Origin: a virus | Strand: one strand, 5' to 3' | UHGV virus genome: UHGV-0304279 | Length of the DNA stretch: 53,351 nucleotides | Shown here: in pieces, positions 34,942-52,753 of the stretch | Numbering within the stretch: position 1 is the first letter of the stretch | Layout: each line of letters starts with the position of its first letter | Program-made: the position numbers and the translations under genes | The notes under the pieces: model-generated | Seen by the model: the letters and a program-made list of their open reading frames with translations, nothing else | Told to the model about the DNA's origin: nothing | The model's database searches: none

Positions 34942-35433
34942 ATGATTAGCCAATCGCTGAAGAACAAGATTATTGCTGCGGCGGCTGGTGGGGCGATCGC
35001 TATTGCGGCTGTGATGGTTAAACCATTAGAAGGCGTGGAGTACGATCCGTATCGTGATGTTATCGGTGTATGGACTGTATGTTATGGTCATACCGGAAAA
35101 GACATCATGCTTGGTAAGACTTACACGCAATCAGAATGCGATGCTTTGTTAAATAAAGATCTCCACAAAACCGCAAAAGCGATCGACCCCTATATTAAAG
35201 TCGAAATATCAGATTTTACCCGCGCGGCGCTTTATTCATTCGCCTATAACGTAGGCGCTACCAACTTTAAAACATCAACATTATTGAAGCTACTCAATGA
35301 CGGCAAGAAATCGGAAGCGTGCGCACAGCTTAAACGCTGGATCTATGCTGGTGGTAAGCAGTGGCAAGGGTTAATTAACCGTCGTGATATTGAATATGCC
35401 GTTTGCGAATGGGGTGAAACATGGACAAGGTAA
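34942..35433 (+). CDS. SAR endolysin (T4-lysozyme-like, GH24) with N-terminal signal-anchor-release domain
   Basis: Catalytic-region motifs (EG..YDPY.D..G.WT.CYGHTG) preceded by a Gly/Ala-rich weakly hydrophobic N-terminal helix ([18 protein letters not shown]). Confidence 0.8.
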
Positions 35434-36005
35434 AGGCGTTAGTTATTGCCGTTGTTGTTTGCATTATTGCCGGACTAACTGCCGTTACATGTTATTACCA
35501 GGGTGAGGCGGCAAGGTTACAGGAAGAAGTCACGGTGACGCAAGGCGCACTAAAAACAGCAAGTAACACCATTCAGCAGATGAAGGAGCGAAACGCCGAA
35601 CTGTCAAAACTTGATAAGAGGTATCACGATGAGATTAAAGCTATCAGATCTGACATTGCCGATCTGCGCACTGGCATTGATAGCGGCGCTATCAGGTTGC
35701 ACGTCAACGCCGAGCCAGTGCGATTGCTCGACAATACCGGAGCCGCCAGCCGCATTGATGGAGCCACCTGTAGACTCACTCCCGACGCTGAATCGGCTTA
35801 TCTATCCCTCAGAGAACAACTAAAAGAGAAAGACGCGAAGATCACCGGATTGCAGGACTACATCAAAACGCAGTGCTTACGCAAAGAACAACAGCGCGTG
35901 GACGTGTCGCCGTTTCCGCCAGCCAGCCATAACCGGGCCAATCCTTCCCGCGAGCGACGGCGGAATAGTCAAAAACACGTAATGCCGGAACATCCATCCC
36001 ATTAA
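35421..36005 (+). CDS. i-spanin Rz (with unusually long C-terminal extension)
   Basis: N-terminal TM helix followed by coiled coil; contains the embedded Rz1 frame. Confidence 0.65.
35629..35823 (+). CDS. o-spanin Rz1 (lipoprotein, embedded in Rz in the +1 frame)
   Basis: Lipobox LSGC within a signal peptide, Pro-rich mature part; RBS AAGAGG. Confidence 0.65.
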   Translation: MRLKLSDLTLPICALALIAALSGCTSTPSQCDCSTIPEPPAALMEPPVDSLPTLNRLIYPSENN

Positions 36006-36169
36006 CAGGTCCGGCGCTACCTGGGCAGAAGAAAGCGCCATTCTCAAGTTTATAAAATTCTGGAAACGGTACTGATGAAGCGCCGTTCTCAGTGTTTTAT
36101 AGCTGTTTTCACTCCCTGCGGTGTCGAGTTTTGCGGGGGTTATATTTTTCAGGATAGAGGAATATTCTG

Positions 36170-36712
36170 ATGGCTAAGGCTAAAGGCATTAAGTTGCCTC
36201 ACTTCAAGATCCCGCTCTTTGAGCATACCACTGTTTTCTTTTGCCCGACCCGCGAGATGTTCTATGAATTTTGCGAAAAGGCAGGAATTCCAATTGAACC
36301 TGATTTCGAACTGGCAGGCGGCCTGACACTCACTTGCACTGGTGAGAAAGGCGGTAACTTCTACGTGATCGCAGTGTTCGACAATGAGTTAGGAACGCTG
36401 GTGCATGAAGCGGCGCACACTACGTTTCACGTATTAAGTGATGTAGGTGTCGTGGCTACCACGGATCCTACCCATCCGGCGAATGAGACTTACGCTTACA
36501 TGGTAGGCCGTATCTTCGATGTATTTTTCCCTATCCTGACAGAATCAAACGAAGCACAGGTTGCAGAAATGCAGGCAGCAGAAGTCGTCGATCAGGCACT
36601 GGAGCAAACAGAACAGCCGAAGGAAGAAGAAAAACCCGCGAAGAAAGGCAAACGTAAGCCGAAGTCAAAAGAGGCATATGTACCGCGTGTAATGAGCTTT
36701 AAGCGAGGCTGA
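36170..36712 (+). CDS. hypothetical protein with HExxH zinc-metallopeptidase-like motif
   Basis: LVHEAAHTTFH with a downstream Glu (NETYAYM); Lys-rich C-terminal tail. Confidence 0.45.
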   Translation: MAKAKGIKLPHFKIPLFEHTTVFFCPTREMFYEFCEKAGIPIEPDFELAGGLTLTCTGEKGGNFYVIAVFDNELGTLVHEAAHTTFHVLSDVGVVATTDPTHPANETYAYMVGRIFDVFFPILTESNEAQVAEMQAAEVVDQALEQTEQPKEEEKPAKKGKRKPKSKEAYVPRVMSFKRG

Positions 36713-36714
36713 TT

Positions 36715-36810
36715 ATGGATGAATGCATCATCGCCGGATTAATTGGTATTTCTGTATTTCTGGTGAGTTTTATTATTGCCGTGCTGATAACCGTAAAGAG
36801 TAAATTATGA
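36715..36810 (+). CDS. mini-gene 1 of tandem array: hydrophobic peptide (31 aa)
   Basis: MDECIIAGLIGISVFLVSFIIAVLITVKSKL; RBS GAGG. Confidence 0.45.
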   Translation: MDECIIAGLIGISVFLVSFIIAVLITVKSKL

Positions 36811-36881
36811 ACACATACGATCTCATCTGGTTATTGGTGCTCATCGTAGGTATTTGTGTGAACATTTACAGGCTATGGTGA
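36807..36881 (+). CDS. mini-gene 2: hydrophobic peptide (24 aa)
   Basis: MNTYDLIWLLVLIVGICVNIYRLW; ATGA overlap with the upstream stop. Confidence 0.45.
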   Translation: MNTYDLIWLLVLIVGICVNIYRLW

Positions 36882-36885
36882 AAAT

Positions 36886-36960
36886 ATGATTGACCCGCTT
36901 ATTATCCTTTCTGCCTGCGTCGCTGTATGGCTGGCGATCATGATATTCATTGAAAGCTAA
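36886..36960 (+). CDS. mini-gene 3: hydrophobic peptide (24 aa)
   Basis: MIDPLIILSACVAVWLAIMIFIES; RBS GGTGA. Confidence 0.45.
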   Translation: MIDPLIILSACVAVWLAIMIFIES

Positions 36961-36970
36961 AGGCATCAAC

Positions 36971-37045
36971 ATGAATATTTACGATCTCATCTGGTGGTCA
37001 TTGGTCGCCGTCATTATCTATTTCTGGTGGAAGAATGTTGTATAG
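36971..37045 (+). CDS. mini-gene 4: hydrophobic peptide (24 aa)
   Basis: MNIYDLIWWSLVAVIIYFWWKNVV; RBS AAGG. Confidence 0.45.
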   Translation: MNIYDLIWWSLVAVIIYFWWKNVV

Positions 37046-37053
37046 GTGAAAGC

Positions 37054-37134
37054 ATGAACGCATACGAAATGCTATTGCTGGTGGCTGTAGTTGTAGTTAT
37101 TGCCGTGGATGTATACCGGGAGATTAAAAAATGA
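37054..37134 (+). CDS. mini-gene 5: hydrophobic peptide (26 aa)
   Basis: MNAYEMLLLVAVVVVIAVDVYREIKK; RBS GGTGA. Confidence 0.45.
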   Translation: MNAYEMLLLVAVVVVIAVDVYREIKK

Positions 37135-37199
37135 AATGGCTTGATTTCTTTTTCCTGATCGTTGCGATTGTTATTACCATGACTGCGCTAACTCAATAG
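37131..37199 (+). CDS. mini-gene 6: hydrophobic peptide (22 aa)
   Basis: MKWLDFFFLIVAIVITMTALTQ; ATGA overlap. Confidence 0.45.
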   Translation: MKWLDFFFLIVAIVITMTALTQ

Positions 37200-37207
37200 G
37201 TGAGCGA

Positions 37208-37282
37208 ATGAACGCTATTGATATTATGTTGATCGTGTGTACCGTTGCGTTATTTATTGTCGGAGTGATTATCAATGTCTGA
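37208..37282 (+). CDS. mini-gene 7: hydrophobic peptide (24 aa)
   Basis: MNAIDIMLIVCTVALFIVGVIINV; RBS GGTGAG. Confidence 0.45.
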   Translation: MNAIDIMLIVCTVALFIVGVIINV

Positions 37283-37343
37283 CAGCGATTTTTTAATCAT
37301 GGCTACATGCACGTTGTTAGTAGTTATCGTTTTCTTCGCATAA
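37275..37343 (+). CDS. mini-gene 8: hydrophobic peptide (22 aa)
   Basis: MSDSDFLIMATCTLLVVIVFFA; RBS GGAG. Confidence 0.45.
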   Translation: MSDSDFLIMATCTLLVVIVFFA

Positions 37344-37353
37344 AGGTTAAGCA

Positions 37354-37437
37354 ATGAAAGAGCTATTTGACTGGTTGGAAGTATTAACATACTGCGCAAG
37401 TTTTGTTGCTTGCGTATATATCATCAATAAATATTGA
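37354..37437 (+). CDS. mini-gene 9: hydrophobic peptide (27 aa)
   Basis: MKELFDWLEVLTYCASFVACVYIINKY; RBS AAGG. Confidence 0.45.
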   Translation: MKELFDWLEVLTYCASFVACVYIINKY

Positions 37438-37447
37438 GAGGTGAATT

Positions 37448-37933
37448 ATGGCCCGCACTAAAAATGCAAAAGCTGACGACAAAAAGCCAGCCGCTAAAAA
37501 GGTGGGCCGTCCGCATGGTTATACCGAAGAAAAAGCGTTAGAGATCTGCGAACTGGTAGCGGACGGTCAGAGCGTTAATAAAATATCGAAAATGCCCGGT
37601 ATGCCTACCCGCACCACGATCTTAAAATGGTTTCGTGATGTGCCTGAATTTTCTGTCATGTACGCGCGCGCGAAAGAAATCGGCTTTGAGGTATTGGCTG
37701 ATGAAATCATCGACATAGCTGATGATGCTAAAAACGCTGATAAAGACCAATTGCGCCGACACCAACTGATGATTGAAACCCGCAAGTGGCTACTGGCAAA
37801 ACTCCAGCCGCGCAAATACGGCGAACGCGTTACACAGGAGATTGTAGGTAACAAGGAAGAAGCACCAGTACAGGTTGCAGTCACAAAAGAGGAGATTGCT
37901 CGCATCGTCCAGGAAGTAGAAGACGAGGTGTGA
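37448..37933 (+). CDS. terminase small subunit
   Basis: HTH-containing N-terminus (GRPHGYTEEKALEICELVADGQSVNKI), position directly upstream of the large terminase; RBS GAGAGGTG. Confidence 0.75.
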   Translation: MARTKNAKADDKKPAAKKVGRPHGYTEEKALEICELVADGQSVNKISKMPGMPTRTTILKWFRDVPEFSVMYARAKEIGFEVLADEIIDIADDAKNADKDQLRRHQLMIETRKWLLAKLQPRKYGERVTQEIVGNKEEAPVQVAVTKEEIARIVQEVEDEV

Positions 37934-39414: not shown

Positions 39415-39492
39415 AAACCATCTCACAATCCCCCATAAGTTTTTCCATTTTTCGCGTAGCAACGCGTAAACATGTATTCAGGAGTAAACATT

Positions 39493-40866
39493 ATGCCATC
39501 CAATTTAGAATTGGCGGTTAATGCTGCCTTGTCACAACGCCAGGCGGCCTTTGCCCGCTATGCAGCCGCTAACCCATTCTCAATGGGTATTGATGCAAAA
39601 CGTGATGCTGCGTGGAGTGAATACGGATTCAAAGAAGAAATCACCTATGACGATTTATACAAACTGTATCGTCGCGGTGGTATCGCTCACGGTGCTATTG
39701 AGAAGATCATCACTACGTGCTGGCGCACCAGGCCAACGCTGATCGAAGGTACGGAAGACGAGAAAGCAGAAAAGGAAACGCCGTGGGAAAGAGAAATCAA
39801 AAAACGATTTGATAATCGTTTCTGGCGCGTCATAGCTGAATGCGATCGCCGCCGCCTCATTGGTCGTTATGCTGGCCTGTTAATTCACGTCAGGGATAAC
39901 CAGTCGTGGGATCAGCCAGTGACGAAAGGTGTAGGCATTGCCAAATTTACCCCTGTATGGGCTGGTGCTCTTACACCGAAGGACTTCGAAGAAAACCCGG
40001 ATAATGAAAACTATGGCCTGCCGACATGGTGGGAATACAAGGAGCGCATTAACAGTAAGACCATAGCAAGAAAGATACATCCCGATCGCATATTTATCTT
40101 CGGTGATTATTCTGATGATGCCATCGCTTTCCTTGAGCCGTCCTATAACGCATTCGTTTCGCTGGAGAAAGTGGAAGGCGGTAGCGGTGAGTCATTCCTG
40201 AAAAACGCCGCGCGTCAACTGGCTATCTCGTTCGATAAAGAAATTGATTTCCGTTCCCTGGCTGCAACATACGGTTGCGACGTTACAGAGCTACGCGAAA
40301 AATTCAATGAGGCGGCAGAGGATATAAACAAGGGCAATGATGTGATGATGGCATTGCAGGGAGCTACCGTTAGCCCGCTGGTCACTGCCGTAGCCGATCC
40401 GTCCGCTACCTATGACGTCAACCTGCAAACCGCCGCCGCTGGCATCGACATTCCAACGCGTATCCTAGTTGGGAATCAGCAGGGTGAGCGTGCATCAACC
40501 GAAGACCTCCGCTACTTCAACAACCGCTGTATGACCCGCCGGGAGGAAATCGGAGGCGAGCTTGAGGAGTTATTCCGCAAGATGGCAGACCTTCGCCTTA
40601 TCAGTATGCCAGTCGATGTGTCGGTACTGTGGGACGACCTTAACGCCATGACGAAAGCCGAGCTACTCGACGCGGCATACAAAATGGCACAAATCAATCA
40701 GGCATGTCTCGCTACTGGTGAACAGGTATTTGACGGTGACGAGATCCGCGAAGCTGCCGGATATGAAGGGCCAACGCAGGAAGTAGAACTGGACGACGAG
40801 GAAAACGATAATGAAGGTGAAGAAAATAATCAGGCGAATACCTCCAGCCGCGATAATGCCATCTAA
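39493..40866 (+). CDS. portal protein
   Basis: About 458 aa directly after the large terminase, acidic C-terminus; RBS AGGAG. Confidence 0.75.
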   Translation: MPSNLELAVNAALSQRQAAFARYAAANPFSMGIDAKRDAAWSEYGFKEEITYDDLYKLYRRGGIAHGAIEKIITTCWRTRPTLIEGTEDEKAEKETPWEREIKKRFDNRFWRVIAECDRRRLIGRYAGLLIHVRDNQSWDQPVTKGVGIAKFTPVWAGALTPKDFEENPDNENYGLPTWWEYKERINSKTIARKIHPDRIFIFGDYSDDAIAFLEPSYNAFVSLEKVEGGSGESFLKNAARQLAISFDKEIDFRSLAATYGCDVTELREKFNEAAEDINKGNDVMMALQGATVSPLVTAVADPSATYDVNLQTAAAGIDIPTRILVGNQQGERASTEDLRYFNNRCMTRREEIGGELEELFRKMADLRLISMPVDVSVLWDDLNAMTKAELLDAAYKMAQINQACLATGEQVFDGDEIREAAGYEGPTQEVELDDEENDNEGEENNQANTSSRDNAI

Positions 40867-52404: not shown

Positions 52405-52504
52405 ACACGACCCCGCGCGAAGCGGGGTTTATAGTGTCGATAGCAGAATGCATAACAATCCAATAATGATAATAATCATCTCCAGAACGTAATGTTCGCA
52501 CATC

Positions 52505-52753
52505 TCATAACGCCCCCTTCAAATATGTCAATCCCTTATCAGTGACGAATGAATGGTTTACCTGGTTTTCATCCGTCATGATGATGAATAACTTTTCCTG
52601 TAGGTATTTCGCTTTTGGGTACAGCGTTAAACAGACCTGGTACAAAACCCCGCGCTCAATCAGCAAATCAATAAATTCGTGCTCATGATAACCGATAAGG
52701 CGGGCGGCCTGTTTCAACGTGTACACATAGCCACCGTGATTGCGCCGCGTCAT
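52505..52753 (-). CDS. hypothetical protein (moron; possible HTH)
   Basis: RBS AAGGTGG. Confidence 0.45.
   Translation of the reverse strand: MTRRNHGGYVYTLKQAARLIGYHEHEFIDLLIERGVLYQVCLTLYPKAKYLQEKLFIIMTDENQVNHSFVTDKGLTYLKGAL

Follow-up and report, generated by a model that had tools for sequence, protein, structure and literature searches.

A polycistronic array of micro-genes for predicted single-helix membrane peptides between the lysis and terminase genes of a temperate Escherichia coli phage

Tandem type I toxin loci (ibs-sib, ldr-rdl, zor-orz and shoB-ohsC) encode hydrophobic peptides of 18–35 amino acids (aa) in side-by-side copies that went unannotated (PMC2887945). Every toxin comes with a promoter of its own, a structured 5′ untranslated region (UTR) and an antisense RNA, and the repeat reaches beyond the coding region. 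Bacterial small membrane proteins, such as YohP (27 aa), AcrZ, MgtS, KdpF and CydX, are no longer than 50 aa, have one transmembrane (TM) helix and are non-enzymatic. They too are missed by annotation, are probably inserted post-translationally through the signal recognition particle (SRP) and YidC or SecYEG (PMC7549839, PMC12648545), and are expected to act through helix–helix contacts or membrane effects; their genes are single chromosomal genes or one gene in the operon of a partner. Here we analyse an array of nine micro-genes for hydrophobic peptides which shares features with both groups. It is located at positions 36715–37437 of the UHGV virus genome UHGV-0304279; the whole stretch of 53,351 nucleotides (nt) is called the window below.

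Holins and antiholins (lambda S105/S107, T4 T/RI, the P1 Lyd proteins and actinophage LysF1a/b) are, like the products predicted here, small late membrane proteins encoded near lysis genes, and several holin-like genes per phage are known. The described holins and antiholins are not smaller than about 60 aa, and they usually have a charged cytoplasmic tail. Accessory slots for morons or counter-defence genes, and anti-CRISPR (acr) arrays, resemble the locus by their small orphan genes, high turnover of presence and absence and conserved flanks. The lambda gene bor, between Rz and cos, lies in the same slot between lysis and packaging genes, where P22-like phages carry unrelated genes. Morons and acr loci usually have their own promoter, terminator or regulator and encode unrelated soluble proteins. 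Back-to-back genes for 20–40 aa products, with their own starts and on one mRNA, are known in staphylococcal psm-alpha (four peptides of about 21 aa) and in plastid and cyanobacterial psbE-F-L-J (single-helix subunits). The phenol-soluble modulins (PSMs) are amphipathic secreted helices, and the Psb subunits are parts of one large, defined complex.

The window covers the entire genome (about 53 kb) of a phage that is temperate, infects E. coli and belongs to the mEpimmI (mEp021-like) group. The original prediction, made from its sequence alone, proposed nine mini-genes in tandem. All nine open reading frames (ORFs) are present exactly where they were placed, and every start is ATG. On the plus strand, these hydrophobic ATG ORFs fill 93 per cent of the 735 bp spacer (36713–37447). 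In 2000 dinucleotide-preserving shuffles, the mean number of such ORFs is 0.99 (maximum 5) and the coverage is 16 per cent; the minus strand of the spacer contains none. The same density metric, calculated per 735 bp, reaches a maximum of 2 in lambda, 3 in the rest of the window and 3 in 368 kb of DNA flanking the arrays of relatives, whereas the arrays usually have 7–10. It had also been proposed that a ribosome-binding site precedes each mini-gene, and this is borne out by the Shine–Dalgarno (SD) sequences: pairing with the anti-SD has a mean energy of −4.7 kcal/mol for the array genes against −2.3 kcal/mol for random ATGs (p = 0.002). The long genes pair somewhat more strongly (mean −5.9 kcal/mol).

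Annotated phages and prophages contributed 16 homologous intervals and IMG/VR contigs 47; three contigs that are more divergent were added. The spacer is present in every genome, with a length of 318–1154 bp, and is filled with mini-ORFs of the same kind; there are 592 of them in 64 genomes. The ratio of non-synonymous to synonymous polymorphism (pN/pS) in the proposed frame is 0.29 for 17 genomes and 0.26 for 64 genomes. It is 0.95–1.38 in the two other frames, and 0.20 in the essential neighbouring gene terS. Third codon positions carry a disproportionate share of the substitutions within families. Cassette copies were also located by DNA similarity alone, so that broken copies are counted too: the start codon and the frame are intact in 556 of 567 DNA-homologous copies (98%), and the disruptions represent about four independent events. 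The decayed cassettes are K, E and one F-type copy. In the most divergent lineage (contigs L068 and L069), the peptides are only about 45 per cent identical to those of the window, and the ATG starts, the tight packing and the peptide layout are kept. Frames and starts are thus retained across homologous phages, both by the frame-specific pN/pS and in the lineage at about 45 per cent identity; loss of both in homologous phages had been named as what would refute the prediction, and the array withstands this comparison. The description of the locus as polycistronic mini-genes with one hydrophobic helix each also agrees with the frame-specific purifying selection and with the conserved junctions. 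These comparisons strongly support the coding reading, in which the nine ORFs are real genes under purifying selection.

The first micro-gene, B (36715–36810; 31 aa, MDECIIAGLIGISVFLVSFIIAVLITVKSKL), starts 2 nt past the stop of a 180-aa gene. It has the SD sequence GAGG (−8.3 kcal/mol) and a pN/pS of 0.25, and its family is present in most related genomes; the flanks of the peptide carry charges of −2 (N-terminal) and +2 (C-terminal) around an uncharged core of 24 residues. Micro-gene C (36807–36881; 24 aa, MNTYDLIWLLVLIVGICVNIYRLW) overlaps B by ATGA, a junction found in nine of 10 genomes. It is present in 12 genomes, with a pN/pS of 0.16, and is a paralogue of E and G. Micro-gene D (36886–36960; 24 aa, MIDPLIILSACVAVWLAIMIFIES) is a near-universal core cassette: 62 of 67 genomes have a DNA-homologous copy, all of them intact, and pN/pS is 0.14–0.30. 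Micro-gene E (36971–37045; 24 aa, MNIYDLIWWSLVAVIIYFWWKNVV) is an ORF present in 44 genomes, and 44 of its 46 copies are intact; its diverged orthologue in L068 reads MELYEVIAIVAFAVVLYSWWKNVL, compared with MNIYDLIWWSLVAVIIYFWWKNVV in the window.

In micro-gene G (37054–37134; 26 aa, MNAYEMLLLVAVVVVIAVDVYREIKK), the SD sequence contains the preceding stop codon TAG (TAGGTGA). All 63 copies are intact and pN/pS is 0.24. One genome (L044) carries, between D and I, a variant of this cassette, MNTYEMLLIADAVLAISAKSNSEAKK, with an intact ORF whose product is non-hydrophobic and has lost its TM character. Micro-gene I (37131–37199; 22 aa, MKWLDFFFLIVAIVITMTALTQ) is intact in 61 of 61 copies, with a pN/pS of 0.14, and its ATGA junction with G is kept in 37 of 39 genomes. 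Micro-gene J (37208–37282; 24 aa, MNAIDIMLIVCTVALFIVGVIINV; pN/pS 0.38) follows a spacer of 8 nt, which has this length and contains TAGGTGA (stop and SD) in all 46 genomes. Micro-gene K (37275–37343; 22 aa, MSDSDFLIMATCTLLVVIVFFA) begins inside J, and the overlap of 8 nt, ATGTCTGA, is kept in 42 of 42 genomes. The start codon of K is changed from ATG to ACG in four near-identical genomes, which indicates that this micro-gene is dispensable. Micro-gene N (37354–37437; 27 aa, MKELFDWLEVLTYCASFVACVYIINKY) is always the last cassette. It is present in all 64 genomes and in L067–L069, with a pN/pS of 0.25; it ends 10 nt before the ATG of terS, and the SD sequence of terS, GAGGTG, directly follows its stop. 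All nine micro-genes are on the plus strand. Four ATGA overlaps had been announced, but only two are seen, B/C (36807–36810) and G/I (37131–37134). The J/K junction (37275–37282) is the 8-nt overlap and not ATGA, and the remaining junctions are spacers of 4–10 nt which carry the SD sequence.

The 202 unique peptides have a common design. The N-terminal flank is negative in 79 per cent of them and the C-terminal flank is neutral or basic (charge at least 0) in 86 per cent; the mean charges are −1.1 and +0.45, respectively, and the uncharged core averages about 19 residues (13–24 in the nine window peptides of 22–31 aa). An acidic residue occupies position 5 in eight of 18 families. The cores are uniformly hydrophobic, with a mean hydropathy of 0.8–2.4 and a hydrophobic moment of 0.04–0.82; the low moment suggests TM rather than amphipathic helices. 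Signal peptides have the opposite charge polarity; under the positive-inside rule, the polarity seen here predicts an N-out/C-in orientation. Each peptide is therefore predicted to be a single-pass protein of the inner membrane in this orientation. Two other classes were considered and ruled out: PSM-like amphipathic peptides, by the hydrophobic cores and low moment, and stand-alone Sec or lipoprotein signal peptides, by the acidic N-terminal flanks and the absence of a positive n-region. Within a family, about half of the positions are invariant; 53 per cent of the replacements exchange one hydrophobic residue for another and 10 per cent change the charge.

The array was said to have been missed by annotation, and this is the case: PGAP calls none of the cassettes. 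Phanotate-based records annotate a few, some with over-long starts. In an exact-sequence look-up among about 15 billion proteins, seven of the nine peptides are absent; peptide B belongs to an unnamed protein cluster of three members, and peptide I has been deposited once (UWI12085.1, ‘MAG: hypothetical protein [Bacteriophage sp.]’). No model of Pfam, PHROG, NCBIfam or PADLOC matched the nine peptides, apart from chance-level TM matches at E ≤ 1. The sole family long enough for a sensitive search, a 47-aa family found in relatives only, gave a profile which matched only itself among 1.84 billion representatives. The cassettes are mentioned neither in the paper on this phage group nor in a survey of intergenic small ORFs in Enterobacteriaceae.

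Clustering gives about 18–20 families, whose relative order is always the same. There are 3–13 genes per genome, in 41 distinct architectures among the 64 genomes. The near-universal cassettes are D, G and I (60–63 of 64 genomes) and N, the only universal one. One genome (L019) has three cassettes only, and D, G and I are absent from it. This genome and the decayed copies of K, E and the F-type cassette suggest that none is indispensable except N. Genome pairs whose flanks are at least 99.5 per cent identical have the same architecture in 92 per cent of cases; below this threshold, the proportion is 0–2 per cent. The holin has 17 alleles with a median identity of 92 per cent, while the array differs between almost all genomes. 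Cassettes are often lost exactly at paralogous 5′ ends, for example where D is joined to G with the spacer normally found before E, which suggests that similar gene starts recombine unequally.

The peptides had been described as diverged paralogues with a shared N-terminal motif. The motif is real: significant similarity links peptides C, E, G and J (z 3.9–10.7), and genes C, E and G have a common 5′ end of 25 nt. Resemblance between families is in general commoner than chance would give: 21 pairs reach p ≤ 0.01, where 1.9 are expected. Paralogy is robust for three groups. One unites C, E and G of the window with the 47-aa family, another unites I of the window with two families that the window lacks, and the third consists of two families from the array head. 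Several families are not demonstrably related. Searches with a degenerate pattern for cassette N and with a terS profile each found nothing in about 100,000 species-representative genomes. As far as these searches reach, the array is confined to the mEpimmI (mEp021-like) phages of E. coli. The nearest relatives of the window phage are Escherichia phages MagusPhagus, mEp010, mEp554, mEp044, mEp013, mEp021 and mEp515, and related prophages are present in 35 of 5,426 complete E. coli genomes.

The position between the lysis cassette and the terminase had been given correctly, though a terminator-like hairpin and the 180-aa gene precede the array, which starts about 710 bp past the spanin gene. 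The upstream lysis cassette is complete, with a holin of two TM segments (PF16080), an endolysin, an i-spanin and an embedded o-spanin lipoprotein. The i-spanin ORF of the window (35421–36005) encodes 194 aa, compared with 156–163 aa in relatives; the C-terminal extension may come from a lost stop codon or a recombination junction. The hairpin, followed by a U-run (36113–36149, plus strand; fold z = −3.5), separates the spanin gene from the 180-aa gene, and the mEp021 and mEp013 records have a terminator annotated at the matching position. Terminators are found upstream of the holin gene as well as of the 180-aa gene. The terminator before the latter implies that late antitermination lets transcription run on into the packaging and head genes.

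The 180-aa gene (36170–36712, plus strand) belongs to the same operon as the array. Its product (phrog_1365, function unknown) has an HExxH motif and a downstream Glu; H79, E80, H83 and E106 are invariant, P22-like homologues included. One homologue carries the label PolyVal metallopeptidase, and a fold search with the 180-aa protein gave no match; the product is possibly a solo zincin-like metallopeptidase. The homologues with a source name are all from E. coli or uncultured Caudoviricetes. Directly 3′ of the array is terS (37448–37933, plus strand), which encodes an Sf6-type small terminase; its orthologues match PF20901 and are named terminase small subunit in MagusPhagus and mEp021. The terminase of this phage group is of the Sf6 type (headful), with PF20901 and Terminase_6C.

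Several relatives carry nuclease genes in this part of the genome: an HNH nuclease gene at the head of the array in mEp013 (L006, 2091–2576), an HNH_3 nuclease gene between the endolysin and spanin genes in L067 (2752–3273) and a GIY-YIG nuclease gene in the lysis-to-terS interval of epsilon34 (L066, 1522–2007). The interval looks like a hotspot for insertions of homing-type nucleases. L067 also has an intein in a Mu-F-like head-morphogenesis gene (PF14890 with PF04233; 8491–8534 onward). The portal gene (equivalent to 39472–40866 of the window) is named by PGAP ‘anti-CBASS protein Acb1 family protein’ in the E. coli KKa019 prophage (L007, 5201–5208 onward), and the same gene is recorded elsewhere as portal (PF06381, Phage_portal_3). 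The Acb1 name is probably an annotation artefact, and possibly reflects a fused or related domain. On the minus strand of the window, a hydrophobic ORF of 24 aa, MCEHYVLEMIIIIIGLLCILLSTL (52429–52503), abuts the stop of an 82-aa ORF (52505–52753, minus strand) and may be another unannotated membrane micro-gene.

We consider it probable, with some reserve, that the locus is a polycistronic array of translationally coupled single-helix membrane micro-genes, forming an accessory module of the late operon. It would be co-transcribed with the late genes, as it continues without gaps from the HExxH gene into terS, beyond terminators through which late antitermination would carry transcription, and the peptides would be made late in infection. 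Insertion into the membrane would be post-translational, from SRP to YidC or SecYEG, the route described for the 27-aa YohP (PMC7549839; reviewed in PMC12648545). Conservation within a family extends beyond hydrophobicity to the sequence itself, so each family probably has a particular membrane-protein target, which it would bind by helix–helix packing. Gain and loss of cassettes by recombination at similar 5′ ends would give almost every non-clonal phage a different set. Cassette N probably also couples translation into terS. The translation, the membrane location and the function of the peptides are inferred.

The function that we prefer, tentatively and at less than even confidence, is a modular arsenal for membrane conflicts, which would block membrane-embedded effectors of abortive infection or the entry of rival phages. 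It is suggested by orphan cassettes that differ between almost all phages and lie in a slot which holds accessory genes elsewhere (lambda bor). A more far-reaching version, which we regard as speculative and rather unlikely, is that the recombining library of single-helix micropeptides is an unrecognized type of counter-defence or inter-phage weapon with one target per cassette. Such targets could be, for example, a TM effector from an abortive-infection system that late proteins trigger, or a channel which rival phages need for the entry of their DNA, and shuffling of the cassettes would fit the arsenal to the defence repertoire of local E. coli. Some observations speak against the conflict role and the array model behind it. 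A late operon and no promoter of its own are unusual for exclusion and anti-defence genes, which are typically early or expressed from the prophage. The pN/pS of about 0.26 indicates purifying and not diversifying selection on each cassette. Some cassettes decay, and in one genome the set is down to three, so that none but N is indispensable. The topology is predicted from charge bias only, and the adjacency to the lysis cassette favours a role in lysis timing.

This last role ranks second and is possible but doubtful. The peptides would build up in the inner membrane at the late stage and hasten or postpone the triggering of the holin, either by leaking the proton-motive force, in the manner of small membrane toxins, or by pairing with the two-TM holin as mini antiholins or co-holins, and the number and identity of the cassettes would set the lysis time. 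The late operon places the array just past the holin–endolysin–spanin cassette, small TM proteins next to lysis cassettes are often holin-like regulators (PMC13056207, PMC9671378), and membrane peptides as small as these can depolarize (YohP preprint; type I toxins, PMC12648545). However, the lysis cassette is complete without the array and is separated from it by the hairpin and an unrelated gene. The holin is conserved, as its alleles show, while the array is hypervariable; the peptides match no holin family, and their family-specific conservation exceeds what a bulk hydrophobic load would need.

It is improbable that the peptides are single-helix subunits of a hetero-oligomeric membrane complex, with D, G, I and N as core and the other cassettes as optional peripheral members. 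Such a complex would agree with the fixed order and the translational coupling, both of which favour stoichiometric co-synthesis, with the presence of the four cassettes in 60–64 of 64 genomes and with the partial paralogy of the families. The genome L019 nevertheless keeps three cassettes without D, G and I, most members come and go extensively, and the locus encodes no larger partner protein.

The original prediction had drawn a parallel with the Ibs, Ldr and ShoB toxins. The corresponding explanation, type I toxin-like prophage toxins for addiction or stress, each under an antisense RNA, is very unlikely. The size, the hydrophobicity and the tandem layout do recall the criteria by which Fozo et al. 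2010 (PMC2887945) searched, the peptides of 22–31 aa lie within the limits of that definition (under 70 aa and one predicted TM region; PMC2887945), and such systems occur in prophages (PMC12648545). The likeness ends there. Beside Ibs, Ldr and ShoB, the class includes Hok, TisB and Zor; no toxin model of NCBIfam or Pfam matches the peptides, and no Sib, Rdl, OhsC or IstR match is found in the array with Rfam. The genes overlap or are 2–18 nt apart within a late operon, which leaves no space for separate promoters, for long 5′ UTRs or for antisense genes. Neither separate transcription units nor repeated non-coding DNA is present, and no antisense signal is seen at the level of the sequence. 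Promoter-like sites on either strand are not in excess (four found, 6.6 expected from shuffles), and internal terminator-like sites in the array do not exceed the shuffle expectation. Membership of the type I toxins is largely refuted by these comparisons.

Hardly credible, finally, is an array without protein-coding function (pac-proximal or regulatory DNA or RNA, or leader ORFs delivering ribosomes to terS): although the array is directly upstream of a headful terS and cassette N runs up to the SD sequence and start of terS, there are no tandem or inverted DNA repeats (the sole repeat is the 25-nt coding 5′ end of C, E and G), the constraint is specific to one frame and matches that on terS in strength, the acidic N-terminal flank and hydrophobic core are kept at about 45 per cent identity, coupling may account for cassette N but not for eight or more others, and a threefold variation in length (318–1154 bp) with gain and loss of cassettes would not be tolerable for a packaging site. 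The pac/cos-proximal repeat which had been named as an alternative is thereby set aside. The only Rfam match, a sub-threshold one to the ribosomal S15 leader (37395–37476; 24.2 bits, gathering threshold 39.5, E = 0.006), extends from the last part of cassette N into the first part of terS, the site where coupling into terS would act; it is probably due to chance.

For human gut samples, the prevalence of this phage group is reported to equal that of lambdoid phages (PMC11893012). Micro-proteins below the thresholds of gene callers are the least explored part of phage coding capacity, and seemingly empty gaps are abundant; the present array is an unusually clean and dense case, with nine to thirteen selected genes in less than 1.1 kb, and argues that phage annotation should lower its ORF cut-offs and make use of comparative pN/pS. 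Several members are in culture, among them mEp021 with five cassettes and mEp010 with 10, and, with E. coli K-12 as host, are ready for genetics. Sequence-specific binding of membrane proteins would make the peptides a natural toolbox of minimal TM inhibitors and a new kind of phage accessory function; a role in tuning lysis would make them a modular means of setting the lysis clock.

By its gene products, the array belongs to the generic class of small membrane proteins: the genes have at most 50 codons, a start with an SD sequence and a signature of purifying selection, and the products have one segment of TM length with charge-biased flanks. It differs from the bacterial examples in that 3–13 genes are chained in a phage late operon without a partner gene, with no sequence similarity and with very fast turnover. 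The array also differs from known holins and antiholins, with nine much shorter peptides encoded outside the lysis cassette and matched by no holin family model of Pfam or PHROG. In contrast to morons and acr loci, it combines a common single-TM design, a fixed order and partial paralogy with the absence of a promoter of its own; and, unlike for psbE-F-L-J, no large complex is evident. As the array has the defining properties of neither type I toxins, holins, PSMs nor packaging repeats, the locus matches no system found. On sequence grounds, we rate it as a set of phage small membrane proteins in what appears to be an undescribed form: dense, modular, fast-evolving and polycistronic.

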